The notes beneath the pieces were generated by a model. It was not told the DNA's origin and searched no databases. It saw only the letters and a list, made by a program, of their open reading frames with translations. 64,000 bases of DNA from a virus. Taxonomy: Duplodnaviria > Caudoviricetes. Made by a program: the position numbers and the translations under genes. This document shows positions 31,819 to 52,225 of this stretch, piece after piece (positions within the stretch are counted from its first letter, which is position 1; each line of letters opens with the position of its first letter). Location of the stretch: positions 1-64,000 of IMG/VR virus record IMGVR_UViG_3300029305_002995; one strand, written 5' to 3'.

Positions 31819-32178
31819 CATTTAACATATATACTTTCGTATATGATTAGACTATATCATCAACCTTACATCAAGGTTGTACTGCGCTTCGATTTAAAGG
31901 ATTCTCACCTACTGAGATTTTCACTCAGCCCTACTTCTATTGTGGAATTTCACCACCTATGGAATAGTCGTTAGACCTTCAATTATATATCAATATAATT
32001 GCTTGGCACAGGATTGTCGTATAACAATATAAAGTTACTTAGATTTTCCCTGTTAGCATAGTTTTTCATCGTCATTTCCTACGATTACAATAGCAAACTA
32101 CACACCCTATATTTATAGGTTCACAGTATTTTCGATATGTATTACTACATAAAGGAGCTAATTAAAGACCGTTAGTTA
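31819..32178 (-). mobile_element. ORF-less group I intron (360 nt) in major tail protein gene
   Basis: P AACAGGGAAA, Q AATCCTGTGCC, R TCTAACGACTA, S ATGATATAGTCT; P1 GAGT/GCTC with U-G; P10 TAATT/AATTA; terminal G at 31819; splicing restores the frame. Confidence 0.92.
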
Positions 32179-32200
32179 ACTCATTTTTATTAAAAGCCAT
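32179..32200 (-). CDS. Major tail protein, exon 1 (22 nt)
   Basis: AAGGAGG RBS then ATG GCT TTT AAT AAA AAT GAG T; ORF 31061-31828 lacks an RBS of its own. Confidence 0.85.
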
Positions 32201-32252
32201 AATTGTTTCCTCCTTAAAAATAATAAAAACCCATGCTAATCAGCATAGGTTT

Positions 32253-33122
32253 TTAAATCTCTCCTGCCCATTCTAAACGTGTTCTATCCACGCCTTTTAA
32301 GCTGGAGAATCCAGAATACGCACCTTGCAAAAGGAGTTCCGCATCCTGTATTTTACCAACACGTTTGATATTATCTAAAAACGCATTGATAGTCATATTA
32401 TATATCTTATTATCTCCACATAAACCACACTTTACAGTTAATGCAGAAACTAATGGTTTTAACATACTTTTGTATGGTTGTCTTGATTGAGCCATAGCTT
32501 CGTCCCTTGCATCGTCAATTAAATCCATTTTGGTCTTTTCGTTTGCAGGAAGTTCACTATTTCTTTTAAAATAATGTATTTGACGAACTGCATCTACCAT
32601 TCTGGTATATACAGCTCTGTCAATTTTTACATCATTTACCACATCATATAATTCTGGTTGCTGTGTTTGGTTGTTGAAAAAACCTTGAAAGTCAGCTAAA
32701 TCCAATGGCTCAAACACACCTTCGGCATTTTTCTTTTTTAAAGTTAATGCTAAAGGATTAAAATACATAGCATCTATATCTTCTTGTGACGTTAAATTTG
32801 CCAATTCTTGTTTGTATTCTTCGGGATTAGACAACCATTTATCATATAATCGTTTCTTGCTTGAAACTAAATGAGATATAAACTTAATGAATAAATCAAA
32901 ATCTTCAATTTGTGTATAATCAATATTTGAATAATCCCAAAGTTGCCACTTAAAATCAGCACCAACACCACAAAGATTATGTACAGCATTAAAATATTTA
33001 CGTTCTCCAAAATCTATGATTTGGTCTATTGTTGGTTGGACAACCATAATTTTAGGAGTAATGAATATATCTTTACCCCTGTAAATTTTCATTTCATCAA
33101 ATTCATACATTACAAAATTCAC
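32253..33122 (-). CDS. Conserved virion morphogenesis protein
   Basis: QPTIDQI.DFGE..YF motif, C-terminal G.YSGF; position in the head-tail block. Confidence 0.55.
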   Translation of the reverse strand: MNFVMYEFDEMKIYRGKDIFITPKIMVVQPTIDQIIDFGERKYFNAVHNLCGVGADFKWQLWDYSNIDYTQIEDFDLFIKFISHLVSSKKRLYDKWLSNPEEYKQELANLTSQEDIDAMYFNPLALTLKKKNAEGVFEPLDLADFQGFFNNQTQQPELYDVVNDVKIDRAVYTRMVDAVRQIHYFKRNSELPANEKTKMDLIDDARDEAMAQSRQPYKSMLKPLVSALTVKCGLCGDNKIYNMTINAFLDNIKRVGKIQDAELLLQGAYSGFSSLKGVDRTRLEWAGEI

Positions 33123-33124
33123 AC

Positions 33125-33619
33125 CTATTCATCTTCTCGACACATTGATTTATTAAGGTCTGTACCTTCAAAAATTAATTGTCTATATAAGTAGTCTGAC
33201 TGATATGCACCTTCGATATTTTGAATTAACTTCATTTCACCAATGCCATATCCAGATTGTCCATTGATTTTTTTATCAATTAGCTTAGATAAATAATCAT
33301 TACGGTTATCTGTAACCTTTGGTATATTATCCACAACCATGTGTTTTTGATGTGAAATAACCCAAATCTCAATACGAGGTTTTACAAAAGTCTGGTCTGC
33401 TTCATAGAATGAATGAGGAATTTGTACTTGAATTGTAATGAAAGTACCTGCGGTTTCTAATGTATATGGATTTTGATGGTAAGTAAAAATATGAGTATTA
33501 ATTAATTTTTCTGGTAAAGTTACGGAATCACTATCAATCGCTTGAATGATTTCTGGGTCTTTGATAAATTCTCTGACAATTCTATTTTTGGCAATACCTA
33601 TAATAGAACTATGAGACAT
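33125..33619 (-). CDS. Tail terminator-like protein
   Basis: NRNDYL..LID..ING..G.G.GEM motif; position. Confidence 0.55.
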   Translation of the reverse strand: MSHSSIIGIAKNRIVREFIKDPEIIQAIDSDSVTLPEKLINTHIFTYHQNPYTLETAGTFITIQVQIPHSFYEADQTFVKPRIEIWVISHQKHMVVDNIPKVTDNRNDYLSKLIDKKINGQSGYGIGEMKLIQNIEGAYQSDYLYRQLIFEGTDLNKSMCREDE

Positions 33620-33620
33620 A

Positions 33621-34670
33621 TTAAATTAACGACTCGATTCTAATAATCAAATTAGACGAATAATTACCATCTAAATCAGTTAAAACCAATTTAAATTCCT
33701 CATCTATATAGTTATCATTATCGATACCTATTTTAATTTGATTATCTACTTCTTGTACAATTAAATCATCTTGGAAATCACAAACAATTTCCCATTTAGG
33801 AATAATTCCTGTAATCTCTTTGCCATACTTATCATAGAATGTCGCATCAAAAACCTGTAAATCGCCACCAGATTTAATAATCTTAGAATCAAAAGATATA
33901 ACTGATTTAGCAACATACTTTTTATCAGCATTATTTGTTTTTACATCTTTTGGATAGATATAATCGCAAATTCCTAAATCAATTCTATCTGTTTCGCTAT
34001 TAATTACAGTTTGCATCAAAGTTACTTTAACTAAGCCTTTTTTGCCATAAGCATAGCTTGTCGTATCATTCTGTGTTACCACATAAGGCGTAGGGCTTAT
34101 AGGATTTTTATCTAAGAAAAATCTTTGTGGACTACTAATTAAAACTGTATTTTTATCAGCAGGTAAAGTAATCATGTGCTGTGCAGTACCAATAGCAAAC
34201 AGTTTGTTTGGCTGTTCACCAGAGTTATACTGCGTTGAATTAATATTGTGACATGGGTATTCTAAAATCTCTCCATATTTATTTTGCCATTTCAAAATCC
34301 AATTACATAAAGTAAGTTTTCCTTGCCAATGAATATTATCTATATTAAAGGACTCTGTACAAATCCAGTGTTCTTCCATTTCGGAATCGTATAGAATATC
34401 ACCAACATAAACAGGCACATCCATTAAAGTTTGGAACTGTGCAGTAGCACCATTCGCATTAGAAAAAGTCCTATGATAAATACGAATATCTAACGGTTCT
34501 TTTTCGTTATACGATTTGGTTTCTAAATCCCAAACGAATATGCCAGTAGCAAAAGAAGCATCGTCTTTAAATGTTGCTTCTAACATTCGTTTGTTGTTTT
34601 GAATATTTTCATTTCTTAATGAACCACCGCAAAGATTCATTCTTTTATTGAATTTCTCCAATGAAATCAA
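33621..34670 (-). CDS. Head-tail joining protein
   Basis: VGDI.Y, CNWILKWQ and DRIDLGICDY motifs; position. Confidence 0.55.
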   Translation of the reverse strand: MISLEKFNKRMNLCGGSLRNENIQNNKRMLEATFKDDASFATGIFVWDLETKSYNEKEPLDIRIYHRTFSNANGATAQFQTLMDVPVYVGDILYDSEMEEHWICTESFNIDNIHWQGKLTLCNWILKWQNKYGEILEYPCHNINSTQYNSGEQPNKLFAIGTAQHMITLPADKNTVLISSPQRFFLDKNPISPTPYVVTQNDTTSYAYGKKGLVKVTLMQTVINSETDRIDLGICDYIYPKDVKTNNADKKYVAKSVISFDSKIIKSGGDLQVFDATFYDKYGKEITGIIPKWEIVCDFQDDLIVQEVDNQIKIGIDNDNYIDEEFKLVLTDLDGNYSSNLIIRIESLI

Positions 34671-34697
34671 CTACGACACTTCCTTTCTACAATTTTT

Positions 34698-35171
34698 TTA
34701 ACAAAATGATTTTCTTTTTTTATAACCTGTATTCCAAGATTCACTAATTTCTCCGTTTGAAAAGCCACCCCAAGCATAACGACTAATCAGCGTTTCGTTT
34801 TCAGCTAAAAAACGAGTATGCATAGCCATTAAAGAGTTAAGAAAATTCGCAGGAGAAAAAGCATTGAAGTCTACTGAACTTAAACTTGCTTTTAATACAG
34901 AAGGAACTCTAATACAATTAGAATCGATATATTCTAAAACAGCATAATTACTTAAAATATCTATTTCTTCTATAGACAATTCTTCATTAAAACGTTCAAG
35001 TTTATCATTTCTATTATTTAAATTCTTTCTACAAACATGAAATCTTGCAATAGCTGGAACGAGATAATCATGCAACAAATCTTTTACTTCATCCACAGTC
35101 ATAATTGGAATATCATAACTTTGAAACTTCGGTAAAACATTTTCATATATTCTTTCATAAGAAGTAGGCAT
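34698..35171 (-). CDS. Head-tail adaptor protein
   Basis: T.YE.IY..., F.EELS..EI.ILS, DF..FSPAN motifs; start MPTSY after GGGGAGGTG. Confidence 0.6.
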   Translation of the reverse strand: MPTSYERIYENVLPKFQSYDIPIMTVDEVKDLLHDYLVPAIARFHVCRKNLNNRNDKLERFNEELSIEEIDILSNYAVLEYIDSNCIRVPSVLKASLSSVDFNAFSPANFLNSLMAMHTRFLAENETLISRYAWGGFSNGEISESWNTGYKKRKSFC

Positions 35172-35199
35172 GATTAACACACCTCCCCTTTTATCCTTG

Positions 35200-35769
35200 T
35201 TATTCAAGGAAGGAAAGTAAATCTAAACCAAGCTGTTTTTCTAATGTTCTAATTACATAAACATCAGAAATATCACCGTTAGCAATTAGGGTTTTAATTT
35301 TATTGTAAACAGTTAATTTCATACTGCTTGGCATTTCTTTAATAGCCGCACAAACTTTAGCTAAATTATTTTTACTGTAACTATCTTTATTCATTACAGT
35401 TTCGTATTTAGCGTATGTACCTTTTAAACCAAGCTTATCAATTACTCTTTCGTCCATCGGTTTCAACCAAAGTTCTTTAAAGTAAGTTTTATATCCTCTC
35501 CACAGATTTTTAATAACTGCAAAGGACATCACTTCTTCATCGTCAACTTTTTTCCAAGAATACATATCTCCAGTAGTGCTATCTTTATAGCTAACATTAG
35601 AAATTAAAGATTTTACAACAATTTCATCAGAATCCTCTAATGGAACAACTTTTTTAGAACTTTCCTGTTTTTCTACATTTTCTTCTTTTACACTTTCATT
35701 AGAAACAGCAGAAGTCATAACTTCATCAGAAACAACTTCTGCTGTGCTTTTAGTTTTGCCTTTAGCCAT
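35200..35769 (-). CDS. Hypothetical protein downstream of the capsid gene
   Basis: Packed ORF; start MAKGK after AAAGGCGG. Confidence 0.55.
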   Translation of the reverse strand: MAKGKTKSTAEVVSDEVMTSAVSNESVKEENVEKQESSKKVVPLEDSDEIVVKSLISNVSYKDSTTGDMYSWKKVDDEEVMSFAVIKNLWRGYKTYFKELWLKPMDERVIDKLGLKGTYAKYETVMNKDSYSKNNLAKVCAAIKEMPSSMKLTVYNKIKTLIANGDISDVYVIRTLEKQLGLDLLSFLE

Positions 35770-35818
35770 AACTAAATCCGCCTTTCTTACGCAATTCAAA
35801 CTTATAGTAAATTACAGA

Positions 35819-36853
35819 TTATGCAAATCTAAACATACCAAAGTATGCAGGTAACAGCATACCCATACCCATACAGGTCTGAATCTGAACATCTACAGAC
35901 ATATCATTATATTTCTTACCAGTAGTGTCCATATCGGAACGAGTATCACCTACAAATTCAAGTTTAATAGGTTTAGAATCGCCACCCATAACGAAAATCA
36001 TATTATCGTCTAAAGCAAGTTCAAAAGTACCAGATTTTAAGGTCTGTGGGATAATCATCAGTTTGTGACCTTCCCAATCACCAATAGAACCAGTATTAGC
36101 TTTTGCTTCTCTCTGAGAATTTGCAAACATTTTGTCTGGAATGATACCAGCAACTTTACGCAAAGCACCTCTTGTACCTGCCAGAGTCAGTTCACTATAA
36201 CCACCAGCAGCCATAACTTTATCACATAAAGCACCTAAAGCTTCTTCGTCATTACCATTAGCTACAAAGTCCTGTGGAACAGCGTCTGCAACATTCTGGA
36301 ACTGAGCATACAGTCTGTCTTGAATGAATTTGTTAACAGATTTATGGATTTTATCCATCATTTTCTCTAATGGAGTAATACCTAACAAGAAACGTTCAAG
36401 TTCTTCATATACATGGATGTAGAACCATTCTCTTGGTAAGGTAATTTCTGCGCCCATTTCAAATGCCTGTCTATTGGTGTCCCAATGGTTGCCAGCAAAA
36501 GTAGCTACAGACAGTAAACCACCTTCGGAATAGAAAGCAGATTTGTCGCCCAATGCACGATTTTTAACTTCTACGAAAGCTTCAATGAAAGCAGAATTTA
36601 ATACGTTTTCGCTAATGGAAGTATTTACGATTTCTTCCATAATTTCAAACATTACTAAGTTGTTACGTCTGAAAGCCTGATACATAGTCATGCCTTTCAG
36701 ATAGTCTTTATTGATGGTGTCACGCAGGTGTTTTTCTAAGTCTCTAACAGTCAGTTTTTCTTCATCGATGTGACGAGAATATTCACCTCTTGCTAAATCC
36801 AGAGTTAAGTCGTAAACCTGCATATCATTTGCACTAAAATTAGTAATAGCCAT
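35819..36853 (-). CDS. Major capsid protein
   Basis: 344 aa, strong codon bias, FEIMEE, VYEELERFLLG motifs; follows protease and decoration genes. Confidence 0.8.
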   Translation of the reverse strand: MAITNFSANDMQVYDLTLDLARGEYSRHIDEEKLTVRDLEKHLRDTINKDYLKGMTMYQAFRRNNLVMFEIMEEIVNTSISENVLNSAFIEAFVEVKNRALGDKSAFYSEGGLLSVATFAGNHWDTNRQAFEMGAEITLPREWFYIHVYEELERFLLGITPLEKMMDKIHKSVNKFIQDRLYAQFQNVADAVPQDFVANGNDEEALGALCDKVMAAGGYSELTLAGTRGALRKVAGIIPDKMFANSQREAKANTGSIGDWEGHKLMIIPQTLKSGTFELALDDNMIFVMGGDSKPIKLEFVGDTRSDMDTTGKKYNDMSVDVQIQTCMGMGMLLPAYFGMFRFA

Positions 36854-36872
36854 AACTTTTACCTCCTATCTC

Positions 36873-37439
36873 TTATTTAGCCAAAGAATTAACTTTTACT
36901 TCGTAAATTTCTTTCTGAGAACCGTAAACGTGAGCTTTAGTAACCAAAGAATTGCTTACCATACGTTTTCTCATAATCTGAGCAGACATAACAGCTCCTT
37001 CGGTTTCAGAAGTAGAAGCAACTAATTTACCAGAAGCGTCAATAGTTGCATATACTGGGGTTGCAGTAAAGTCAGCAGTACCAGTAACAGTTTCACGAGA
37101 ATCAGCAGTAAAACCTTCGATAGCAGTACCAAATTCATCAGTTACTTTCATAACATATGCTCTAAATGGTACACCAGCTTCAATAATAAAAATATCTCTA
37201 CGCTGATTGGTAATGCGGCAGGTATCATAATCCCATGCAGGATTGTTAGCAACAACAACTTCTGCACCTTCTTTAGTACCTTTTACAAATTTATAGATGT
37301 TAGATTCACCTTCTGCTAAACCTTCTAAGTAGCCGAAAGTGCCATTCTCAACAGGTTCTTCGCATACAGCATCAAAAATACGTTCTGCAAAATGAACACT
37401 TCTCATATTCACAGACTCAAACACATTGTAAATAGCCAT
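36873..37439 (-). CDS. Head decoration/capsid-associated protein
   Basis: VENG..G.L, F.IEAG.PFRAY motifs; between scaffold and capsid. Confidence 0.6.
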   Translation of the reverse strand: MAIYNVFESVNMRSVHFAERIFDAVCEEPVENGTFGYLEGLAEGESNIYKFVKGTKEGAEVVVANNPAWDYDTCRITNQRRDIFIIEAGVPFRAYVMKVTDEFGTAIEGFTADSRETVTGTADFTATPVYATIDASGKLVASTSETEGAVMSAQIMRKRMVSNSLVTKAHVYGSQKEIYEVKVNSLAK

Positions 37440-37514
37440 GTTGTTTTCCTCCTTAAAAAATCACATAAAAAAAGACCGCCTAAAGCAGTCAATGTAGTAT
37501 TTAAAATTTATCTT

Positions 37515-39077
37515 TTATTTACTTTTTCTGATATTACCGTATTTGGTCTGAACAAACATATCGCCATTGTCAATATTTTCATCCATAATTCCAAGTACAC
37601 CAGAATTGTTCTGTCTACTAAAATTGGTTTTATGTACTCTATTTTCTTTTACATAAAGCAGAGCGCATTTATTCTCAATTTCTTCAACAGACATTTCAGC
37701 TTTGTTAGCTTTAATAGCGGCAAATTCTTCGTTATTACCTAAATCTAAAGCATAATCAGAAATAATAGCATCTTTACGAGCATTTAATTCAATTTCAGCT
37801 TTTTCTTCTTCTGCTTTAACATAAGCATCATATTTAGGTTTCATTTCTTCAAAATCTGCTTTCACAGTTGCGTAATTAGTCTGTGCTGTTTCCAATTCAT
37901 TTCTAACACCTTCAAGTTCGCCTTGAATTGTTGCATAATTAGTTTCAGCAGTAACCTTTTCTTCTTCTGCGGTAGAGAGTTTTGCATTTACTTCATCTAC
38001 TTTTTCAAAAGCTAACTGTTCAATTTCAGCAATGTGCTTACCGAAATCAAAACTACCTTCTGGAACTTCTGTTCCTTCTTCGTAGTTTACATACTGGATT
38101 TTCTTTCTATTGCCATTAGTAAAGTCAATTTCGGGTTTATCGCCATTGATAGTGAATGGGAAACCATAATGACAGTAATTGTTCTTTCTGTCTACAACAA
38201 TCACTTCGTCATCTTGAATATCCTGCAAATAGAAGCGAGGACAAGTGCCACAACCCCACGCACTTTCCATAACTTCTTGCTGACTCACTAAATTGGAAAT
38301 ATCAGAGAAAAGTTCCATAACAGTCTGTCCAAAGTCTGTAGCTGGCATGATTCCAATACCTCCTTGATTAGATTTTTCATTCACCATCTTGGTGAAAAGA
38401 TTTAAGTTTTCACACAATTCATTTTGCATTTCTTTTACAAAATCTGTCATTGTGAATTGAACTTCAACAGTAGAGTTCATCATAGCTGGTTCATAAGATT
38501 CTCCAAGAATACAAGCAGCTCTAAAAGAAAATCGTGTAAAATGGAATATACCATCTTCATCTTCATAACCGTCATAATCTTCTAAGTCTTTGTCTTGTAA
38601 TTCCATAGAATGATTTTTGATTATATCTCTATCCATAATAGAAGAACTATCTTCAAACATTCTCCACATTAAACCATCTACAACTAAAAATGTACGTTCA
38701 ACTCCATCGTCACATACACGTTGTTCGTAATGAGCATTATTATCTGCGGAACTCATTACAACACCGTATGCTGAACCAACATATTTTTTATAAACGCCAT
38801 TTTCATTTTTTGACAAAATATAATGATGGTCTGAAAAATCTTTCTCACCTAACGAGTCAGCTTTAATAAAGCCCACAATAGGAATATAGCCAAGTGTAGG
38901 AATTGCTTCATCTACAACTTCTTTTTCAAATACACTACCATTAAAATTCTGCCCAAGGTGCATCAACCACACCTTAACTTTAATAAATCTTTTATCTTCA
39001 ACTGCATATTCTTCTGATGTTTTTTCAAACATAACAGGGTAAGATAATGCAGATTTTTTAATTTTAACATCTGACAT
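37515..39077 (-). CDS. Prohead protease / scaffold
   Basis: HLGQNFNGS.F, HSMEL, CILG..YEPAM; acidic coiled-coil C-terminus. Confidence 0.75.
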   Translation of the reverse strand: MSDVKIKKSALSYPVMFEKTSEEYAVEDKRFIKVKVWLMHLGQNFNGSVFEKEVVDEAIPTLGYIPIVGFIKADSLGEKDFSDHHYILSKNENGVYKKYVGSAYGVVMSSADNNAHYEQRVCDDGVERTFLVVDGLMWRMFEDSSSIMDRDIIKNHSMELQDKDLEDYDGYEDEDGIFHFTRFSFRAACILGESYEPAMMNSTVEVQFTMTDFVKEMQNELCENLNLFTKMVNEKSNQGGIGIMPATDFGQTVMELFSDISNLVSQQEVMESAWGCGTCPRFYLQDIQDDEVIVVDRKNNYCHYGFPFTINGDKPEIDFTNGNRKKIQYVNYEEGTEVPEGSFDFGKHIAEIEQLAFEKVDEVNAKLSTAEEEKVTAETNYATIQGELEGVRNELETAQTNYATVKADFEEMKPKYDAYVKAEEEKAEIELNARKDAIISDYALDLGNNEEFAAIKANKAEMSVEEIENKCALLYVKENRVHKTNFSRQNNSGVLGIMDENIDNGDMFVQTKYGNIRKSK

Positions 39078-39088
39078 TGTTATCACCC

Positions 39089-40648
39089 CTATCTGTCATT
39101 CTTTTCATTATCAGCAGTCTTTTGACCTTCTTCTGATAGAGTTTTGCCCTTGTCAGCATTTGTTGGTCTACCAGACTCACTACTGGTTGTTTCGACTGTG
39201 TTTCCGTTATATGAAGATGATAATGGAATGAAATTATTATGATAATCGAATACATCTTTATGAAGAATATAAGAACCTAATACACATGAAGGAGTCATAT
39301 CTAAAGTGGCAAGCCATTTATCAATAACTGTTGCCCCTAATGTGCAAGCTTCTTTATATCGTTTTGACACCGTATCTCTATTGAAAATAGTGGTATCTAA
39401 TAAATAGAATCTGAACTTATATCCTGTTTTATTAAATCTTCTTAGCTTAATATATCTGTTTGCCCAACGTTCTAATTGTCTGTAAACAAAATATATGAAA
39501 CCAGAATCGTTCTCTACAGAAAATGTTACCGCAGTACCAGAAGATGAACCATTAAAATACTCCTTTGTTGCACCAGAAGAATTGTAAATTTCATCTATTG
39601 CGTCCGAAACATTATTACGAGTATTAGTAGAATCTTTAAAGCTAACAGCTTCACCATCAGCACCTAAAGTATGAATGATACCAATGTCGTCACTCATAGC
39701 TTCTCGGTTAATGTGAGCAAAAGCTAATAATGTTTTTGGAGTCAGCAAAGGTTTATCGATTGTAGTTTCATCAATAGGAACTTTAATCATAATCGCTTTA
39801 TAGTTATCTGTTCTGGCAGACTGCAATTTTAATTTTTTATAAGTATCTAAGTCAAAAATATCTCTAATTAACCCGATAAGAATTGGGTAAGGATAAATCC
39901 ATTGACTATTCATTTTTACACAAATTTGTTTATCTGCTGGTGGTAAATACCATCGTTGTCCTTTGTTTTCACAATAATCCATATATGCTTTTTGAACATA
40001 ATCTGGATAAGCAGTTAATTGTTTTGGACTAATTGCAGGTAAATTGATTTTAAAGTTATACAATCCATCTTGAACTTGATATAACTCACATACTTGCAAA
40101 TCCAATTTCTGAATAAAGAAATCAGAACTGCTTTCTACAACTAAGCCACAATATATATCTTGATATGGTAAATAACGTAAAATCTTAGCAAATTCATGTT
40201 TAAGATTCATATTTTCAAATCGTGCTGCTAATGTAGTATAAGACTTTTTAATTGTTTCAGCGTTAACATTTTCTTTTACATCGAATAAATCAATACCCCA
40301 TTGGAATAAACCCATATTGGCATATAACATATTTAATCTATAGTAATGCGGTGACACCCTCATAAGATATTCAGAAGCCCTTAACAAAACACGCCATCCT
40401 ATTTTGGGATTAGCTAAAGCACTATAAACATCTTCAATTTTAATTTCTCCCAAACAACCTGTATCTAATACATTCGTATTGGTACAAATATCTGAAACCA
40501 TCAAACGTCTAAAAGTAGTTAAATCTACTTCTTCATTATTTTTTATAGCATTATTAAAAACATTTTCATCTTTTTCAAAATCTGATTTTGTATAGATAGG
40601 AATATATTTTACTTTCTTCTCTTTAGAAAGTTTTACTTTTGTAGCCAT
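39089..40648 (-). CDS. Portal protein
   Basis: 519 aa between TerL and protease; C-terminal P..SSY...GRP. Confidence 0.75.
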   Translation of the reverse strand: MATKVKLSKEKKVKYIPIYTKSDFEKDENVFNNAIKNNEEVDLTTFRRLMVSDICTNTNVLDTGCLGEIKIEDVYSALANPKIGWRVLLRASEYLMRVSPHYYRLNMLYANMGLFQWGIDLFDVKENVNAETIKKSYTTLAARFENMNLKHEFAKILRYLPYQDIYCGLVVESSSDFFIQKLDLQVCELYQVQDGLYNFKINLPAISPKQLTAYPDYVQKAYMDYCENKGQRWYLPPADKQICVKMNSQWIYPYPILIGLIRDIFDLDTYKKLKLQSARTDNYKAIMIKVPIDETTIDKPLLTPKTLLAFAHINREAMSDDIGIIHTLGADGEAVSFKDSTNTRNNVSDAIDEIYNSSGATKEYFNGSSSGTAVTFSVENDSGFIYFVYRQLERWANRYIKLRRFNKTGYKFRFYLLDTTIFNRDTVSKRYKEACTLGATVIDKWLATLDMTPSCVLGSYILHKDVFDYHNNFIPLSSSYNGNTVETTSSESGRPTNADKGKTLSEEGQKTADNEKNDR

Positions 40649-40674
40649 TTTTCATCCTCACCCCCTATCTGTTC

Positions 40675-42456
40675 TTAGTACATATTCGGTCTTTTATTAA
40701 TTTTTCTAAACTGATTCACATAATCATTTATATCAAAATCGGTTTTAGGTTTACGCAATAATTCTCTTTCCAATTGACACTGAACCCAATAATTGTAAGC
40801 TAAAGAACTATATCTGTCTTTTCGCATCCCACTTTTTTCAGTGACTTTTACATTCGTACCTTTAATTTCATGTTCAAGACTAATTAATTCATATACCAAC
40901 AATGTAGTTTGAATGAATGGTAATTTATACTGAACCTGTTCGAATGGCATCATTTTACTAAAACCTTTAATCTTTTCTTTTAATATTTCTTCTGCTTCAA
41001 ATTCAGAAACTAAAAGATTGATTTTTCCATTTTGAAAACCTGTTCTAAGTAAAATACACGCTTCGGTATTAAATGTAGCATTAGCCTTAATAGACCAAAT
41101 CACTTGTGGCGCATTTGGCACTTTACAACGTTCAGCCATAACTTTGTCATTACGGCAAGATAAAGCTGGATATACTTCACCTGTTTCTGGGTCAAACATA
41201 TCTTGCATGATAGCATCAGCTACGCCAAGACCAATACCATTCGTATCTAAAACAAGGTCTGTACATTTATATCGTTTATATAATCTGCGAACAATTAATG
41301 CCAATTCTTCTGTTCTTAAACCTTCGAAGTTTTCTAAGTACACAATATTAGAAACATAGCTATCATTATTGGTGGGAATTGCACTATTAATAATAATAGA
41401 ACTTGCGTCATTTTTATTTTTCTTAGAAGCCATAAGCGCAATATCGACCGATAATATACGCCTTTCATTGGTTACTAACTCTGGTATTCTAATACCTTTA
41501 TCTATATCTATTAATGCTGGTGGATAAAATGGTGTTTTTAATTTTCTTCTTTGCGATATATCGTCAAATGAGAAGAAAGCACCATCAGTATCACCATAAA
41601 ATAGACAACCCATTTCAACAGTCCAAGTAACTTCATCAAAGTCATCTTCTGACATTTCATCTTCTACTTGTTCTCTTGAAAGTAATTTTTCAAATACTGA
41701 AATTTGATAAGGTAAACCGCAGATAAAATATTTCTTTGAATCATCTAAGAAATTCACTGTATATGCTTTAGCCTTGTCAAATGACCAGTGCGATTTAAGC
41801 CATGCAGAACTCATATAGATTTCTTTATTTCGTTCTGTTAAATGTTGATATTCTGGTTTACTTAAATACATAGGCTGACGTGGAGCAGTTAAATATTTTC
41901 TAAGTACCGTATCAATAATCTTTTTATCTACCATACGATACTCGTCACATACTAAAACATTTCCTCTAAAACCACGACCTGTATCTGATGCAGTAACTAC
42001 TTTAATCCAAGAACCGTTTTTAAACGCAACGACAGCTTTATTAAGACCTACAGAAGTTTCTTTCATATCTATTTCACGTTTAAGATTTTCTGAACCCCAT
42101 CCGTAGTTCTTAATTAAATCTTCCATAATTTTTTGAAGAACTTCATTGCCTTGTGTTCGAGTTGCTGATGCAACTACAATTTTAGTCTTAGGATATAGAA
42201 TACATCGAACTACACAAAATACCGCAGTTAGATATGTCTTTCCTTGACCCCTTGCGGCAAGATACATTATGTAGTTGTTATGCATCATTGCAAAAATAAG
42301 AATCTTTTGAAATAGTCTTAAATTTATATTTAAATAATCCTTACAAAAACGATGTGGATTTTCTCTGTAAAAACCACACCATTTAGCAACACCTTGTAAA
42401 ATCTTTTGAGATTTTTCTAAAGCAATTTCTTTTTCTGACTTCTTAGGTTTAGCCAT
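40675..42456 (-). CDS. terL: Terminase large subunit
   Basis: Walker A ARGQGKT, Walker B VLVCDE, nuclease SVDIA, LDTNGIG and RKDRYSS. Confidence 0.92.
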   Translation of the reverse strand: MAKPKKSEKEIALEKSQKILQGVAKWCGFYRENPHRFCKDYLNINLRLFQKILIFAMMHNNYIMYLAARGQGKTYLTAVFCVVRCILYPKTKIVVASATRTQGNEVLQKIMEDLIKNYGWGSENLKREIDMKETSVGLNKAVVAFKNGSWIKVVTASDTGRGFRGNVLVCDEYRMVDKKIIDTVLRKYLTAPRQPMYLSKPEYQHLTERNKEIYMSSAWLKSHWSFDKAKAYTVNFLDDSKKYFICGLPYQISVFEKLLSREQVEDEMSEDDFDEVTWTVEMGCLFYGDTDGAFFSFDDISQRRKLKTPFYPPALIDIDKGIRIPELVTNERRILSVDIALMASKKNKNDASSIIINSAIPTNNDSYVSNIVYLENFEGLRTEELALIVRRLYKRYKCTDLVLDTNGIGLGVADAIMQDMFDPETGEVYPALSCRNDKVMAERCKVPNAPQVIWSIKANATFNTEACILLRTGFQNGKINLLVSEFEAEEILKEKIKGFSKMMPFEQVQYKLPFIQTTLLVYELISLEHEIKGTNVKVTEKSGMRKDRYSSLAYNYWVQCQLERELLRKPKTDFDINDYVNQFRKINKRPNMY

Positions 42457-43468
42457 CTAAATCACCTCCAAACAAAGCGTCAAACAATGCTTCTGAATCA
42501 CCATCTTCTGCTTCGTATTCTGGTTTAGTAACAGAATATTTAGCCATGAAATCATCGTAAGCTTTACATGGTGCATTTTTAATACCCATCATTTTAGATA
42601 AATGACCCTTAAAGAATATATTGATATATTTACCAATACGGTCAACATCCTTAAAATCATCATCCATTTCTGGAATTGGCTCAGTATTTTCCCATTTGTC
42701 AATCAAAGTACCAAAAGTCTGTGTATCAGAAATTGTTTCACCTTTATTTTGTTTAGGTTGCAACTTAGCTGCTTCAAGTTGTTTTAGATAGGTGTGGTTT
42801 AAGTCTTTAGTATCTTCTCCTGCTCTATCAGCTTTTAATAAATCTAACTGAGTACGACAAAGACGTTTAAAAATTTCTTCTTGTGATTTTGTTTCACATT
42901 CATGTCGTGCAATCCAATCTTGGTATTGAGAATAAAGATAAGTATAATCTTCATTACTAAAACCTTTACCAAACATTTTAATTGCCGCTTTTATTTCATC
43001 ATTATGTTTTTTATCATTATCAGTAACAATCAAAAAGTCCTTAGTGTCATCTTTTGATAAACGTTCCATAATTGTGTCATCGTATCTTTTTTCCATATAG
43101 GGATTGATAGCAGTTCGCTTTAGATACGAAGCAATTACAGAACCATTAGCACTATAAGAAGCATCTTCAATAGCTAAATCAAATACTACTTCTGTAAAAT
43201 ATACATCTAATAGCATACACATATGCTCTACAGCCATACGTTTAGGATTTACTGATTCCAATTTTTCATATTGTTTACAAAAATCGTTATATAATTTTTC
43301 AATACATTTTTTACAATAAGGCAGCTTGCCTTTCGCTTTGAATAGTTTACTGCTCGATGAAGTAAAGTCTTTAGTAGTCAAAGCTTTACCACAATGTACA
43401 CAGCACACAACATCCTTGGTGACAAGTGCCTTTTCTGACCTTGGATAAGCCATTGGGAACACCGCCAT
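42449..43468 (-). CDS. Putative terminase small subunit / Zn-binding protein
   Basis: N-terminal CxxC...CKKC; overlaps the terL start. Confidence 0.55.
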   Translation of the reverse strand: MAVFPMAYPRSEKALVTKDVVCCVHCGKALTTKDFTSSSSKLFKAKGKLPYCKKCIEKLYNDFCKQYEKLESVNPKRMAVEHMCMLLDVYFTEVVFDLAIEDASYSANGSVIASYLKRTAINPYMEKRYDDTIMERLSKDDTKDFLIVTDNDKKHNDEIKAAIKMFGKGFSNEDYTYLYSQYQDWIARHECETKSQEEIFKRLCRTQLDLLKADRAGEDTKDLNHTYLKQLEAAKLQPKQNKGETISDTQTFGTLIDKWENTEPIPEMDDDFKDVDRIGKYINIFFKGHLSKMMGIKNAPCKAYDDFMAKYSVTKPEYEAEDGDSEALFDALFGGDLDG

Positions 43469-43510
43469 TTCTTTACAATAAAAAAAAGACGCTGCAAAAC
43501 GTCTAACAAA

Positions 43511-44857
43511 TTATCTATTTCTAATTGGTGTGTAAATCACATCTGTTAACCCATCTTCATAGTCAAAAACAAATGATTTACACTGTCTTTTAGAATTATA
43601 ACCCTTATCTGCACTCCATTTACTTCTTGCGCTAATGGTAGGAAGTCTTTGGATTCTAATATTGTTTTCTTCTAAAAGTAATTGTTCTGTATGTAAATGT
43701 TGTAGAAACACTTCTACGGTTTCAGCTTGCGACCAATACTGTCTTGCTTCGTCAGCGATTATAGCAGGTAATTTCGCTACTTTACCATCGTGGGCAAAAC
43801 ATAATAAAGTGTTTCCATACAACTGATATTTTCTTGCTTTTGGTGTGCTATCTACCCAGACATTATCATCATGTCTAAACCATGCTTCAATATATTTAGC
43901 CAATTTAAAACCTGTAACTTCATCATGGTTGCCCATAACATAAATTACTTTGACAAATGCTTGCTCTTTTAAAATATCAATAGCCTTAATAGTCATAGCG
44001 CACAATCTTTCATAAGCATCATAATAATGCAGATGATTGTCTTGTGGAGTACCTTTAGTGGTAGTACCACTTAAATTATCTCCATTCAACATATCTCCAC
44101 CAATACAAAAGATTATTTCTTGAAAAGTATAATGAGCTGTTCTGGATAAAACATCTTCAATAACATGAAAGAATAGCTTTTCTGCAATATCACAATTGTA
44201 TTCATTACCCGTAGTCAAAATAGAAGCCTGTAGATTTAAATGTAAATCTGCAATGTCTATTAACAATAGTTTATCACCATTTTTATAATCACTACGATAA
44301 GTTAATTCTGGTAAAGAATATTTTCTATCCAACCTGTCAAAGAAAGAACTAATCTTTTGTAAAGATAAATCTTTTTCTTCTATTGGCTTTATAGTAATAT
44401 AACTTGCATACAAAGTACAAATTCCATCTTGTTTTGAAATAACTTGTCTAATCGTATTTCTTGCACTTACAATTTTCCAGAAATTAGGGTCAAAACCATG
44501 AGCTTGTAGAATATACTCTGGATTTTTAGACTGTTCTTCGTTCATAACAATTAATTTACTACTTGAATAAGAACCATCTTTATTAATCGAAGTTTCAGAA
44601 TAAGACTTTAAATCCATAACAGCATCATTCTGTTTTTCTTTTTGTGATTTAAAATATTCAGCCACAAATGCACCGCCAAAAATTGATGCATTAGCTTTTC
44701 TTAAAGTTTCGGAAGAAACTGGTAAATGATATTGTTCGCAAATTTCATTCCAATCTAAATCAATCACATTGTTTTTCTTATCTTGAATAAGTTGAATACA
44801 TTTTTCGTATTCTTCTGCGGTTAATCCAGACTTTGTAATTTCGTCTAAAAGATTCAT
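43511..44857 (-). CDS. Calcineurin-like metallophosphoesterase
   Basis: DLH, GGD, GNHD, AHDG and HLH motifs. Confidence 0.8.
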   Translation of the reverse strand: MNLLDEITKSGLTAEEYEKCIQLIQDKKNNVIDLDWNEICEQYHLPVSSETLRKANASIFGGAFVAEYFKSQKEKQNDAVMDLKSYSETSINKDGSYSSSKLIVMNEEQSKNPEYILQAHGFDPNFWKIVSARNTIRQVISKQDGICTLYASYITIKPIEEKDLSLQKISSFFDRLDRKYSLPELTYRSDYKNGDKLLLIDIADLHLNLQASILTTGNEYNCDIAEKLFFHVIEDVLSRTAHYTFQEIIFCIGGDMLNGDNLSGTTTKGTPQDNHLHYYDAYERLCAMTIKAIDILKEQAFVKVIYVMGNHDEVTGFKLAKYIEAWFRHDDNVWVDSTPKARKYQLYGNTLLCFAHDGKVAKLPAIIADEARQYWSQAETVEVFLQHLHTEQLLLEENNIRIQRLPTISARSKWSADKGYNSKRQCKSFVFDYEDGLTDVIYTPIRNR

Positions 44858-44890
44858 TGATATCAGTCCCTTCACTAAAATTCAAATTAT

Positions 44891-44966
44891 TGGAGCTTAT
44901 GACCCGACTCGAACAGGCGACCTGCTGATTACAAATCAGCTGCACTACCAACTGTGCTACACAAGC
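44891..44966 (-). tRNA. tRNA-Thr(UGU)
   Basis: Full cloverleaf, anticodon loop TTTGTAA, TTCGAGT T-loop, encoded CCA. Confidence 0.9.
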
Positions 44967-45038
44967 AAATAAAAAACAGACGCAAGCATAAAAACCTGCG
45001 TCTGTAAGCGTATATCTTAAAACATACACCCCAATTAC

Positions 45039-45113
45039 TGGAGGATATGGCGTGACTTGAACACGCATAAGGCAAATTAACAGTTTGCTGCCTAACCGTT
45101 AGGCTACATATCC
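45039..45113 (-). tRNA. tRNA-Asn(GUU)
   Basis: GCAAA-CTGTTAA-TTTGC anticodon arm, TTCAAGT T-loop, CCA. Confidence 0.85.
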
Positions 45114-45230
45114 ATATAAACCCTACGCCCGAAGAACATTATATTAAATATAACTTGAACTTTTACCGAATCAGCAGAAAGATAGCTAATCAAACCACTT
45201 AAAACGTAAACTTGTCAAATAGAGTAGCAC

Positions 45231-45319
45231 TGGCGCAGAAGGTAGGATTTGAACCCACGGTACGTTGCCGTATCATCAGTTTTCAAGACTGACTCCTTAA
45301 ACCACTCGGACACTTCTGC
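45231..45319 (-). tRNA. tRNA-Ser(UGA)
   Basis: TCAGT-CTTGAAA-ACTGA, long variable arm, G73, CCA. Confidence 0.92.
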
Positions 45320-45352
45320 GTATTTATCTTTTACAATCTTTCTTTGCTGTAC

Positions 45353-45439
45353 TGGTGGGGATGGTGGGAGTTGAACCCACACGAAGTTTCCCCCAAGGGA
45401 TTTTAAGTCCCTTGTGTCTGCCTATTCCACCACATCCCC
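45353..45439 (-). tRNA. tRNA-Leu(UAA)
   Basis: AGGGA-CTTAAAA-TCCCT, long variable arm, A73, CCA. Confidence 0.92.
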
Positions 45440-45446
45440 AAATACA

Positions 45447-45524
45447 GGTGGAGGTGGGATTTGAACCCACGTTGTCCAACCAGCCTTAGTAATATAGGAC
45501 GTTTTTCACTAAACTACATCCACC
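45447..45524 (-). pseudogene. tRNA-like element (His-like body, aberrant anticodon arm)
   Basis: GGTGGATG acceptor, D arm, intact GTGGG-TTCAAAT-CCCAC T arm; 19-nt anticodon loop; no CCA. Confidence 0.6.
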
Positions 45525-45715
45525 AGATTTGTTGTGGTCAATCTTTCAATCAACCACAACAACAGCAAAGAAAGGCGTGTAAAAAATATGAATGTAAAGA
45601 AAGATGGTTGTCTGGTGCTATTCCAGACAACCAAATATATATAAAACAGCATTTTCCAAGCAAACACAGTTCGCTTAGTAGCTAATGCTGACTTTATAAC
45701 TATAAAATTTTTATT

Positions 45716-46075
45716 TTACAAGAAAGAATTTCCTACCCAACGTTTAGGTTTAGGAAAATCTTTTAAAAGTTTATCTTTGTAATATCGTGTAATAGTAGCT
45801 TTTAGTTTATATCTATCATTTGCAATTATCTCGGTTTGATTCAGATAATCAAAAGAATCACGCTCTGGAAGATAAGTACATTCAAAATTAATACCCTTAT
45901 ACAACTTAATACAAACATCAGTCTTTTTATCTGCGGTTGCCAGAAGTTGTCTAAATGCTTCTCCAAAAGCATCATATATTTTTTCAAGAACAGGAATGGT
46001 AATTCCTAATTCTTTAGCTACAATTCTTACGATTTGCTTTTTATCGTATGTAACTAATTTCTTAGATTTAATCAC
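45716..46075 (-). CDS. HU/IHF-like DNA-binding protein
   Basis: KKQIVRIVAKELG N-terminal helix and I.L..G..FE...PER arm; sits next to the RNAP gene, like SPbeta yonN. Confidence 0.6.
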   Translation of the reverse strand: MIKSKKLVTYDKKQIVRIVAKELGITIPVLEKIYDAFGEAFRQLLATADKKTDVCIKLYKGINFECTYLPERDSFDYLNQTEIIANDRYKLKATITRYYKDKLLKDFPKPKRWVGNSFL

Positions 46076-46175
46076 ATATATTCACCCTTTACTTAAATTC
46101 ACACTATCTTTAAAAGCAGGAAATAAAACATAGGGTTATTAACTTATTTCCCCAATATAGATATTTCACGATTTC

Positions 46176-46254
46176 AAAAACAACCAGTTTTTTCTGGTCG
46201 TTTTTAGCAGACAATCAAAATCAAAAACAACCAGTTTTTTCTGGCTGTTTTTGA
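46176..46254. repeat. Tandem pair of imperfect palindromes AAAAACAACCAG-T6-CTGGYYGTTTTT (terminators and/or binding sites)
   Basis: Copies at 46176-46205 and 46223-46252, directly after the RNAP stop. Confidence 0.75.
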
Positions 46255-46270
46255 TAAATTTTTGATAGCG

Positions 46271-47029
46271 TTACAACTGATTTTGTCTATACCTTTGTAC
46301 TCTAAGTCGAGTCATTTCACGCTTATGTTCTATAGCGCAAGCTTCACATCTATGCACTTTATTATCTTTCACATTGGTAGTAAACCATTCACCGCAATCA
46401 ACACACTGAACATCTTTGGTATGCAATTTTAGATTTCCACTTAAATTCTCGTAGATATAATCACCATAACATAACCATAAAATCATTTTATGTTTGCTGT
46501 CTTTAACAACATATAAAAGCTTGACTAATATATCTGCAACTTCTGAATTGGAATATCCAAACTTAGATAATTCAGTTTGAATTTCTTCTACAATTCGTTT
46601 GTATCTTAATTCTTGTTTTAATTGAGAATTTTTAAGAACATCCGCAGAATAACATTTATCCACCTGTGAAGCATTATTAAGAGCAAACTTATATTTATTA
46701 CTCAATTCATAATACTTAACAATTAATGGGTCTGTACTTTCTTTGATTAACTTACCTTTGTCTGTAAAATTCACAATACACTCTATATCTGGATTTCGCA
46801 TAAGCAAAGTGTAATCTATAGGGTTAACTTCAAGTTTTCTAAAATTAATTCTTGGATTAGGAATTATATTTTCAAGCTTATTTACAAAGCTATTATTAAC
46901 TGGAAATACTTGATGTTCTTCTTTGTCTTTAGCATATTTAAAGAAATGCGGTAAATTATTATTTGTGAACACACTAATTTGTGCATCAATATTTTTAGGT
47001 CGTGTTGGTTTATACAATGTCTTAGCATA
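46271..47029 (-). CDS. yonO: YonO-like RNA polymerase, exon 3
   Basis: Joining gives ENNFVID-YAKTLYKP; LPHFFKYAK motif; C-terminal Zn ribbon. Confidence 0.85.
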   Translation of the reverse strand, partial: YAKTLYKPTRPKNIDAQISVFTNNNLPHFFKYAKDKEEHQVFPVNNSFVNKLENIIPNPRINFRKLEVNPIDYTLLMRNPDIECIVNFTDKGKLIKESTDPLIVKYYELSNKYKFALNNASQVDKCYSADVLKNSQLKQELRYKRIVEEIQTELSKFGYSNSEVADILVKLLYVVKDSKHKMILWLCYGDYIYENLSGNLKLHTKDVQCVDCGEWFTTNVKDNKVHRCEACAIEHKREMTRLRVQRYRQNQL

Positions 47030-47419
47030 CTTAATTATACCCTCGGTTTCCCGATATTTATTAGGGGAATAGACTATATCATTACCCTATGTCAATTCAT
47101 AGGCTTATTATTAAGGGATTTCTCCGTAGTTAGCACTTCGATTTGAGGGGTTTTCACCCAGCAAGTATTTCATCTTGCCCCTACTCCTGTTGCTGAATTT
47201 CACAGCCTATGGGATAGTCGTTAGACCTTCAATTATATATCAAATATAATTGCTTGGCACTGGATTGTCATATAACAATATAAAGTTACTTAGATTTTCC
47301 CTGTTAGCATAGTTTTTCATCGTCATTTCCTACGATTACAATAGCAAACTACACACCCTACATTTATAGGTTCACTAACTTATTCGATATGTATTACTAC
47401 ATAAAGCGACTATATTTTA
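47030..47419 (-). mobile_element. ORF-less group I intron (390 nt), RNAP intron 2
   Basis: P AACAGGGAAA, R TCTAACGACTA, S ATGATATAGTCT; P1 CGAT/GTCG with U-G; terminal G at 47030; in-frame junction. Confidence 0.9.
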
Positions 47420-47722: not shown

Positions 47723-48744
47723 CACGATACTTTACATATCGCAGACTATATCTTAACCATATCTTTTCAGACTTAGGTTCTCAGCACTTCCACATAATGA
47801 ATGTCACATTATATGTACTCTACTTGGTTACTCATATAACACCATTTAAGGTTTTATATTATCCTTTCGATAGTCGTTTGATTTTCGTAAAATAAAAATT
47901 CAATCATTTTATATATTTTTTAATGCTATAATGTTTTTTATACAAAGAATTATTTCTAATTGCTCTATTCAATTGACACCGTACAGTTTCTACGTTATCT
48001 GTATCAGCTACACCAATATCAATTAAATATTGACAACATGGTACAATATAATCAAAACTTTTAACCAACTCTCCATCGTAAAATAAATCAACTGGTGTAC
48101 TACGACCATTTTGTGTTGCAGGTCTACCTTGTTTTATTTTAGACAGCAATTTATCATTTTGGTATTTCTTTGACAATTTATCATTTCCATAATTAGGATT
48201 TTTCTCGCCATGATAATCTGGTCTATTACAATTACTATATCTAACATTATCAGCATGAGTCATCCATTCTAAATTATCTGCTTTAGGATTTGCTCTATTG
48301 TAATCTTTGTGATTTACTTCTGGTAAATTATTTGGATTCGGTACAAAAGCAATGGCAACTAATATATGTACTGCTACGCTACGATAACCGATATTAGGCA
48401 ATCGCAAAGTACACACAATATATCCATCTGCATTATATCTATGTACACACTCTTTTCCATTACAAATAATCTTTCCAAAATTAGATACAGTTAAGTTTAA
48501 TCCTTTATAGCAAATATTTTTATATTGTTCTTGCAATTATAACACCACCTATTTTTTTTATAAAATGATGGATTATTTTTATTTTACGCTTAACACAGGA
48601 TTGCCATAATTAGTTTCCCTGTTAGCACATTACCAAATCGTCATTTCCTACGATTCCAAAAATGTGTAATGTACACCCTATATTTATAGGTTCACTGAGT
48701 TTTATATCTCTATGTTTCCATAGAGTTTGACATTTTTACTGGTC
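47723..48744 (-). mobile_element. Group I intron (1022 nt), RNAP intron 1, in the catalytic motif
   Basis: P1 TTTGAT/GTCAAA with U-G; P AACAGGGAAA, Q AATCCTGTGTT, R TCAAACGACTA, S AAGATATAGTCT; P3 CTCAGTG/TGCTGAG; terminal G at 47723. Confidence 0.93.
47904..48536 (-). CDS. Intron-encoded HNH homing endonuclease (I-HmuI-like)
   Basis: VHILVAIAFVPNPNNLPEVNHKDYNRANPKADNLEWMTHADN; enclosed by a 14-bp P6a stem CGTAAAATAAAAAT/ATTTTTATTTTACG. Confidence 0.9.
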   Translation of the reverse strand: MQEQYKNICYKGLNLTVSNFGKIICNGKECVHRYNADGYIVCTLRLPNIGYRSVAVHILVAIAFVPNPNNLPEVNHKDYNRANPKADNLEWMTHADNVRYSNCNRPDYHGEKNPNYGNDKLSKKYQNDKLLSKIKQGRPATQNGRSTPVDLFYDGELVKSFDYIVPCCQYLIDIGVADTDNVETVRCQLNRAIRNNSLYKKHYSIKKYIK

Positions 48745-51703: not shown

Positions 51704-52225
51704 ATCCTATTCCCTTATTTTTACAATTCACTATTTTCAGCAGCTAATTTTTCAAAATTCAAATTCAAAAATATACAGTTAACGTACACGATTGGCATTT
51801 ATAGGGGTAGAAAAATCAAATCGTGTACAAAATCCGTATCGTTTTTTAACTTCTATATATAATATATAATAGAAATATATATAAAATACTTAAAGCACAC
51901 TTTTTTTCACTACCTGCTGAAAAGTACAAATTCTATAAGCTATCTCATACGTTATTTTCATGCTAAAACACTTTATACGAATTATCTTTTTATGTAAATA
52001 TCTCTTTGATACTGAATAACTTTATTTTAAATTAATATTTTCTGAAATATTAGCTTTAGAAAAATATTATTTTCTTGGGATTAAGTCATACCTGCACTAT
52101 CTTTTGTCTTTATATGGTGTTTTAGATTTATTTGCGTTTTAGCTTATAACCTTATTATCCTACTATTAGTTTTAAATAGTAAGGTTTTGTTCAATAATGA
52201 CTTATACCTTTACTATCTATGCAAT

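Follow-up and report, generated by a model that had tools for sequence, protein, structure and literature searches.

How do two group I introns in unrelated genes of one phage come to share an almost identical ribozyme core, while each carries a guide sequence matched to its own exon? The question arises in a 64,000-nucleotide stretch of phage DNA (the window), which comprises bases 1-64000 of the 111,157-bp IMG/VR virus record IMGVR_UViG_3300029305_002995, a record estimated to be 81% complete. One of the introns interrupts a tail-tube gene, and the other, polymerase intron 2, interrupts a YonO-like RNA polymerase gene; the region under study runs from 31819, the last base (omega-G) of the tail-tube intron, to 47419, the first base of polymerase intron 2, and all of its genes lie on the minus strand. 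An earlier note, made from the sequence without database searches, had proposed a recent transposition or gene conversion between the introns, with the guide retargeted on a core carried into an unrelated gene. We conclude with good confidence that ectopic gene conversion between two resident introns is the best explanation, its probable direction being from the tail-tube intron into polymerase intron 2.

A near-identical block between diverged flanks

A repeat finder matched 31992-32124 to 47243-47375 (133 nt, 98%), and a BLAST search of the block against its own 111-kb record paired 31964-32124 with 47214-47375 (98%, E = 4.7e-75) and returned a third, weaker copy at 48614-48695 (79%), in polymerase intron 1. 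By global alignment, the two block copies (32121-31964 and 47372-47214) are identical at 155 of 159 aligned positions, and the paired region (P) P2 is identical at all 24 (32131-32154 in the tail-tube intron, 47383-47406 in polymerase intron 2). The same alignment finds identity at only 7 of 24 positions in P1 and the internal guide sequence (IGS), 5 of 10 in the P3 5' strand, 47 of 67 in P7.1-P7.2, and 42 of 117 from P3' to the intron end. Four differences separate the copies (tail-tube/polymerase intron 2): A/G at 32110/47361, C/T at 32019/47270, T/A at 32010/47261, and a one-base indel after 31994/47244; the longest exact run common to both is 90 nt. The near-identical core and the stronger divergence of P7.1-P9 described in the earlier note are thus borne out, as is the more remote membership of polymerase intron 1 in the same family (nhmmer, 96 bits). 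About 25 distinct members of this family emerged from an exact-motif scan combined with a profile search, and the covariation alignment comprises 24.

The guides are as the note had claimed (GAGT/GCTC and CGAT/GTCG in DNA letters): GAGU of the 5' exon pairs with the IGS GCUC in the tail-tube intron, CGAU with GUCG in polymerase intron 2, and in each intron the bases just 5' of the guide are complementary to the start of its own 3' exon, making a P10 possible. P3 differs between the two with compensation, again as described (TACTGTG/CGCAGTA against AGTTAGTG/TGCTAACT), and its pairing is kept by compensatory changes in every family intron in which both strands were read. These pairs were anchored just after a conserved GAAG; an unanchored best-complement search gave spurious partners.

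The mismatch that the note had placed in P4 of polymerase intron 2 is real. The T-to-A difference sets A47302 opposite A47261, at a column pair of the alignment (104/148) that is mismatched in only 2 of the 24 family members, and RNAfold assigns the P4-P6 domain -12.1 kcal/mol in polymerase intron 2 versus -15.6 kcal/mol in the tail-tube copy. The locus L019 has a C.A mismatch at the same P4 pair (alignment A2, columns 104/148), and this pair may tolerate non-pairing.

Ancestral insertion sites and conflicting trees

Introns with the same guides occupy both insertion sites in other phages. At the tail-tube site, introns with the IGS GCUC are present in the related loci L082, L085, and L104, and the distant homologue L004 (32% protein identity, E = 2e-24) has an intron at the same codon position with the IGS GCTC. 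Of 54 related loci, 14 carry an intron at polymerase site 2, SPbeta-like Bacillus prophages among them, and the IGS there reads GUCG or GUCA. In the site-2 orthologues of L028 and L031, the P3 strand AGTTGGTG is paired with TGCCAAC, and the P3 of polymerase intron 2 is this site-2 P3 with one compensated pair changed; its 3' half is also closest to the introns of L028 and L031 (75-81% by alignment, versus 52% to the tail-tube intron). Because same-guide introns exist at both sites and each window intron has its nearest 3'-half relatives among the introns of its own site, P1 and P3 are native to each site, and only the middle was copied.

This comparison does not support the idea of a guide retargeted on a core that had been carried into an unrelated gene. 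Of the two routes offered in the earlier note, gene conversion is supported, in keeping with the conflicting trees described below, whereas transposition is disfavoured, given that the sites are ancestral and the 3' halves site-native. The interpretation in the note is thus supported in part.

Pairwise alignment and intron phylogeny across relatives, which the note had named as checks, confirm the block and yield trees that conflict by half. In maximum-likelihood trees of the 3' halves, introns group by insertion site with a minimum of 2 changes, a value that 0 of 200 label shuffles reached; trees of the 5' blocks do not group by site, requiring 6 changes, with 42 of 200 shuffles as low. The 5' block tree places the tail-tube intron and polymerase intron 2 as sisters (94/88), with L004 joining next (90/86), and an approximately unbiased (AU) test rejects a grouping of polymerase intron 2 with its site orthologues in this block (p = 0.010). 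Across genomes, the mean identity of the 5' block is 72% for same-site and 70% for different-site pairs, and that of the 3' half is 55% versus 38%. Some different-site pairs are unusually alike in the 5' block, such as the R1 and R2 introns of L006 (85%) and L030_R2 with L006_R1 (87%), which suggests that the 5' half may have been exchanged repeatedly across genomes, few of which carry several introns.

A near-identical tract with diverged flanks, accompanied by conflicting trees, is the pattern by which conversion is recognized, and it is the pattern observed here. Taken with the ancestral sites, the trees bear the signature of conversion between resident introns and not that of a moved, re-aimed copy.

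The proposed conversion between resident introns and its rivals

We propose that both introns, putatively self-splicing and of IA2 type, had long resided at their own sites in two late genes, one in the YomU-type tail-tube gene and the other at site 2 of the YonO-type polymerase gene, and that a recent non-reciprocal homologous recombination would have transferred the middle of one intron to the other. This tract would comprise a peripheral P3.1-P3.2 module, the P4-P6 domain, the joining segment (J) J6/7, and the P7 5' strand, probably together with P2, while P1/IGS and P10, both P3 strands, and P7.1 through P9 would have been kept native in each intron. With these native recognition and scaffold parts, both chimeric ribozymes would still be able to recognize their cognate exons and to complete their cores. 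The native P3 5' strand lying between identical stretches fits selection, since a converted P3 strand could not have paired with the native P3'. The conversion was presumably patchy, with a short island in polymerase intron 2 retaining recipient-lineage bases and P4 left half-converted. Both introns are assumed to splice still, given the expected essentiality of the two genes and the unchanged recurrence of the phage across many samples.

The tail-tube intron was most likely the donor and polymerase intron 2 the recipient, a direction read from sequence clues inside the block. The sister of the shared block, L004, is a tail-tube-site intron (90/86), and P5a (GTAAC/GTTAT) and the inner P6 match the tail-tube orthologue L082, where the site-2 intron of L028 has GTAAT/ATTAT. 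Introns of the tail-tube lineage read CAGGG/CCTG in P4, whereas L028, L006, and L030 read CTGGG/CCAG at site 2; the CAGGG/CCAG of polymerase intron 2 joins a tail-type 5' strand to a site-2-type 3' strand and looks like a half-converted helix. T47270 and A47261 lie in a run identical to L028_R2 and L006_R2, so that two of the four block differences look like a recipient island, and a third, G47361 (a U.G pair in P3.1), matches L031_R2.

The conversion may also have cost polymerase intron 2 a gene. The site-2 orthologues closest to it in the 3' half carry a GIY-YIG-like open reading frame (ORF) in the P5 loop, and ORFs at this site are GIY-YIG-like or LAGLIDADG-like, the motifs having been read by eye. 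We hypothesize that conversion by an ORF-less intron removed the endonuclease gene; ORF-less site-2 introns also exist (L058).

Several observations weigh against this reading. Neither a relative above ~66% protein identity nor an unconverted allele came to light, so that the ancestral state of polymerase intron 2 is taken from distant orthologues. Neither an unconverted allele nor population polymorphism was seen among the fetched contigs of the phage, which are all identical, with relatives following only at ~66% protein identity, and a search for closer site-2 relatives through the P8 motif returned only distant introns. The P3.2 stem of the block (TGTAATCG...CGATGAA type) is unlike that of the tail-tube introns L082 and L104 and of the site-2 orthologues and resembles only L004, L005, and L017, and from this odd stem a third-party donor is possible. 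A native P3 5' strand flanked by two identical stretches calls for two separate tracts, for patchy repair, or for selection against disruption of P3. For the 3' half, a clade of the tail-tube intron with polymerase intron 2 costs a log-likelihood difference (delta lnL) of 15.7, which the AU test places at the borderline (p = 0.054). Finally, all assemblies are short-read, and several of the samples may share one study.

The P3.2 stem bears most directly on a scenario in which a related intron of another phage served as donor to both window introns, either in separate events or during one co-infection. No sampled orthologue at either site has a stem of this type, which resembles those of L005 and L017, which lie in other genes, and of L004, and 5' blocks do mix between sites across genomes (L030_R2 and L006_R1, 87%). 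Yet the block was not found outside this phage in IMG/VR or in the JGI metagenome collection, two events would be needed where one suffices, and the residual differences fit a transfer from the tail-tube site to site 2; we regard such a donor as unlikely. A scan of metagenome contigs for a block-specific 29-mer gave no match, but near-identical records are probably missing from the collection scanned, and this is not evidence of absence; a megablast search of the tail-tube region against cultured phages also gave no match. Recent ectopic transposition, by reverse splicing or illegitimate homing and with later retargeting of guide and P3, is distinctly less probable again. It can draw on the presence of the family in many different genes and on the lineage of polymerase intron 1, which sits at two positions 5 nt apart with differing guides, so that retargeting has occurred in the family. 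Same-IGS orthologues at both sites in distant relatives speak against it, however, as do the P3 of polymerase intron 2, one compensated pair away from the site-2 P3, and its P7.1-P9, 75-81% identical to L028_R2 and 52% to the tail-tube intron; a transposed copy would have carried the 3' half of its donor too.

We give the least weight of all to an assembly artefact, in which a short-read assembler threaded the core of one intron through the locus of the other, the outcome that the earlier note had said would refute it. At least 24 contigs carry the exact tail-tube ORF, and 5 carry the polymerase exon-3 ORF. Eight fetched contigs, drawn from different JGI and ENA samples, reproduce the entire tail-tube intron of the window at 100% identity, and one contig, L110, does the same for the stretch 48695-43271, which takes in polymerase intron 2. 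Each intron is thus spanned, together with unique exons on either side, by contigs from several samples and two assembly pipelines, the four fixed differences are kept between the copies, both genes are in frame across their junctions, and at 90 nt the longest exact run falls short of the k=141 in the contig label of the ENA assemblies. The short-read origin of every assembly lends the artefact some room, and 3 of the 5 contigs with the exon-3 ORF start within the polymerase intron 2 block or at its border, although this is also expected for a true repeat; in addition, one hybrid contig, L114, crosses from polymerase intron 2 to the tail-tube intron within the 90-nt identical run. With independent, if exclusively short-read, assemblies in agreement, a one-off misassembly is unlikely, and conversion, probably from the tail-tube intron into polymerase intron 2, is the reading that we retain.

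In the hybrid L114 (a contig of JGI 3300018427), positions 1-700 hold an unrelated NlpC/P60-like gene fragment and the last 62 nt of polymerase exon 2, followed by P1-P3-P3.1 of intron 2; after a crossover in the 90-nt run, the contig continues with the tail-tube intron's 3' half and exon 2 of the same gene. No k-mer is shared at the left junction, which would be unusual for a de Bruijn chimera. L114 may have arisen by real deletion or rearrangement, or it may be an assembly chimera. A scan of metagenome contigs for this left junction found no match but also missed L114 itself, and is therefore not evidence of absence. Deletion of the head module by recombination across the direct repeats, spaced 15,251 bp apart, a risk raised in the earlier note, is plausible.

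The genes, the intron family, and its known relatives

The phage is SPbeta-like, as judged from its YonO, YomU, and YonG homologues. The tail-tube product is of YomU type (precomputed Pfam match to YomU_Tube, PF27173; phrog_2729), and its splice junctions follow from the sequence MAFNKNEL/ILDRVRS (the slash marks the junction), unbroken in the intronless L081 and 21 other loci. The tail-tube 3' splice site is preceded, at a distance of 10 nt, by an in-frame ATG (31828-31819), so that gene callers report a 255-aa ORF (MLNV-ILDRV...) that masks the intron and has been called on at least 24 public contigs. The polymerase is 46-52% identical to YonO homologues of SPbeta-like Bacillus phages and of Clostridium phage D-1873; the junction of its intron 1 (LQFD/VDGDK) is fixed by the intronless L047, L028, and L033, and that of intron 2 (NFVID/YAKTLY) is continuous in the intronless L047. 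Removal of the tail-tube intron and of both polymerase introns restores the reading frame, as in intronless homologues, and the exons stay in frame across the junctions in both genes. The start of polymerase exon 2 at 47725, given by the ORF list, was moved to 47722 on the strength of the intronless homologues. Table 1 collects the coordinates.

Table 1. Exons, introns, and ribozyme elements of the tail-tube and polymerase genes (window coordinates)
Feature	Position	Strand	Details
Tail-tube exon 1	32200-32179	-	22 nt; MAFNKNE and first base of a Leu codon
Tail-tube group I intron	32178-31819	-	360 nt; no ORF; junctions from intronless homologues
Tail-tube intron IGS (GCTC)	32158-32155	-	omega-G 31819
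Tail-tube exon 2	31818-31061	-	phrog_2729 virion structural protein; YomU_Tube
YonO-like RNA polymerase exon 1	50574-48745	-	Pfam RdRP PF05183; phrog_8308 positions 2-550
Polymerase intron 1	48744-47723	-	1022 nt; HNH endonuclease ORF 48536-47904
Polymerase exon 2	47722-47420	-	101 codons; phrog_8308 positions 551-644; contiguous with exons 1 and 3 in intronless L047
Polymerase intron 2	47419-47030	-	390 nt; no ORF
Polymerase intron 2 IGS (GTCG)	47410-47407	-	omega-G 47030
Polymerase exon 3	47029-46271	-	phrog_8308 positions 649-846; tblastn contiguity in relatives
Shared block, tail-tube copy	32121-31964	-	P3.1, P3.2, J3/4, P4-P5-P6, J6/7, P7 5' strand
Shared block, polymerase intron 2 copy	47372-47214	-	same elements
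P3 5' strand, tail-tube intron (TACTGTG)	32128-32122	-	pairs with 31886-31880 (CGCAGTA)
P3 5' strand, polymerase intron 2 (AGTTAGTG)	47380-47373	-	pairs with 47135-47128 (TGCTAACT)
P3.1 hairpin, tail-tube intron	32119-32106	-	5 bp; between P3 and J3/4
P3.2 stem-loop, tail-tube intron	32103-32056	-	9-bp stem and 5-bp stem; apical loop AGGAAATG invariant
P3.1-P3.2 equivalent, polymerase intron 2	47370-47307	-	
P3.1-P3.2 equivalent, polymerase intron 1	48690-48625	-	
Probable unconverted recipient island	47270-47260	-	T47270, A47261, P4 3' strand CCAG

The ORF of polymerase intron 1 matches HNH_3 and phrog_959; no homing-endonuclease ORF is present in the tail-tube intron (360 nt) or in polymerase intron 2 (390 nt). 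The polymerase intron of the DxDGD region occurs at two positions 5 nt apart, after LQFD (TTYGAT and then the splice site) in the window, L027, L044, and L068, and after CAGT, splitting a Phe codon, in L006, L008, and L030. The guides read GTCRAA or GTCG at the former and GCTGT at the latter, and the 3' halves form one clade (100/99), which looks like a small retargeting or sliding within this lineage.

The group I identity of the two introns is evident from the 5' splice-site U paired with a G of the IGS and from the terminal G. The Rfam model RF00028 scores the tail-tube intron at 54.5 bits, against a cut-off of 50 and with permissive filters only, and polymerase intron 2 at 32.9 bits (E = 1e-6), below the cut-off; it misaligns the P3.1-P3.2 module as P1/P2. 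Its alignment of P3 to ACTATGC, just before P4, was rejected, as this strand covaries with an upstream GTAGTTT, with which it pairs, and in polymerase intron 2 is not complementary to P3'. The subgroup IA2 is indicated by P7.1 and P7.2, two hairpins between the P7 5' strand and P3', and by a 3' half that matches the annotated introns of SPbeta bnrdF and phage K lysK, which we take to be IA2 introns. In one respect the introns depart from IA2: the P3 5' strand does not stand directly before J3/4 and P4, and ~65 nt folded into two covarying helices intervene.

These ~65 nt between the P3 5' strand and J3/4, the P3.1-P3.2 module, are present in all ~25 family members. In the alignment of 24 members, 98.8% of cells are paired and 18 of 25 pairs have changed on both sides, values as high in 0 of 500 shuffled or slid registers; the covariation supports P4 and P3.1/P3.2, and P3 pairs across the insertion in ten different compensated versions, while P7 (GACTAT/ATAGTC) is invariant and without covariation information. 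A contact between the loop AGGAAATG and a P7.1 loop of GAAAUUC type is only a guess. The module is absent from the introns of SPbeta bnrdF and phage K lysK, whose 3' halves are homologous to the family, and from a tape-measure intron in the window, all of which have P3 directly before UAA and P4. A shallow literature search found no description of it. The tape-measure intron, a fourth group I intron in the window (18448-17054, minus strand), is a canonical IA2 intron, with P3 directly before TAA and P4 and with neither the P3.1-P3.2 module nor the shared block; two intron architectures therefore coexist in one phage. Outside the window, G000 has a very weak RF00028 match at 87617-87689 (9.4 bits, E = 0.6, P4-P6 part only), which may be chance or another degenerate intron.

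The family is present, unannotated, at site 2 of the yonO homologue of the cultured Bacillus phages phi3T, SPR, SPbetaL3-L7, Goe11, and Goe14, whose records show two hypothetical proteins and no intron; it also occurs in Enterocloster, Enterococcus, Lactobacillus, and Clostridium phages. In phi3T (KY030782, ~51488-51983) and SPR (OM236515, ~67728-68228), the site-2 intron is ~400 nt long. Forms of 1.29 kb with an ORF occupy site 2 in related Bacillus prophage contigs such as L052.

Among known systems, the introns of T4 td and nrdB have reportedly recombined through their shared core to give chimeric introns and deletions. The likeness lies in a pair of group I introns that interrupt separate genes of a single phage, in chimeric ribozymes, and in direct repeats whose reciprocal exchange deletes the intervening DNA. 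The T4 products, however, were lab-selected recombinants with deletions, whereas here the conversion appears non-reciprocal and patchy, both genes are intact, and the near-identical tract is far longer. The introns of Twort orf142 and nrdE are said to be of IA2 type, and resemble ours in that there are several per genome and per gene, mutually related. The 3' halves of the window introns resemble those of Staphylococcus Twort-like (Twortvirinae) introns, such as that of phage K lysK, but the introns of phage K, SPbeta bnrdF, and the tape-measure gene of the window have P3 directly before J3/4-P4 and no P3.1-P3.2 module. To our knowledge, no 98% identical block bounded by a native P1 and P3 has been described for these introns. 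The introns of SPbeta bnrdE/bnrdF (annotated in NC_001884) share with the window the phage group, a homologous 3' half (nhmmer, E = 1e-14), and an intron-borne HNH endonuclease; their host genes encode ribonucleotide reductase, those in the window a tail tube and an RNA polymerase. A passage of PMC2396411 describes a non-canonical insert between P3 and P4 in the yeast mitochondrial COX1 intron aI5beta, an unrelated, organellar, protein-dependent intron whose insert is a precedent for the P3.1-P3.2 module in position.

The exchange described here is a natural, fixed, and non-reciprocal form of known phage intron recombination. In an SPbeta-like phage, it affects one structural and one transcription gene, involves an intron family of atypical structure, and has left what looks like a half-converted helix. 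It offers a natural, datable case of modular exchange, with P4-P6 and a peripheral module swapped between two ribozymes that need to keep working, and the predicted cost of the mismatched P4, ~3.5 kcal/mol, bears on how much damage is tolerable and which parts of a group I core are interchangeable. Conversion between introns may be a route to the loss of endonuclease genes. In practical terms, an unannotated intron family splits yonO in phi3T and SPR and is under-scored by the Rfam model, and a 160-bp direct repeat with copies separated by 15 kb puts both assembly and genome stability at risk. More broadly, and with somewhat less than even confidence, we suggest that the 5' half (P3.1-P3.2 and P4-P6) may be an exchangeable cassette copied repeatedly between sites, with the 3' half, P1, and P3 tied to the site; that the module with AGGAAATG may define an undescribed IA2-like subclass; and that the window may capture one such domain swap, with one helix half-converted and perhaps an endonuclease gene lost. 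If so, co-resident introns would evolve in concert.

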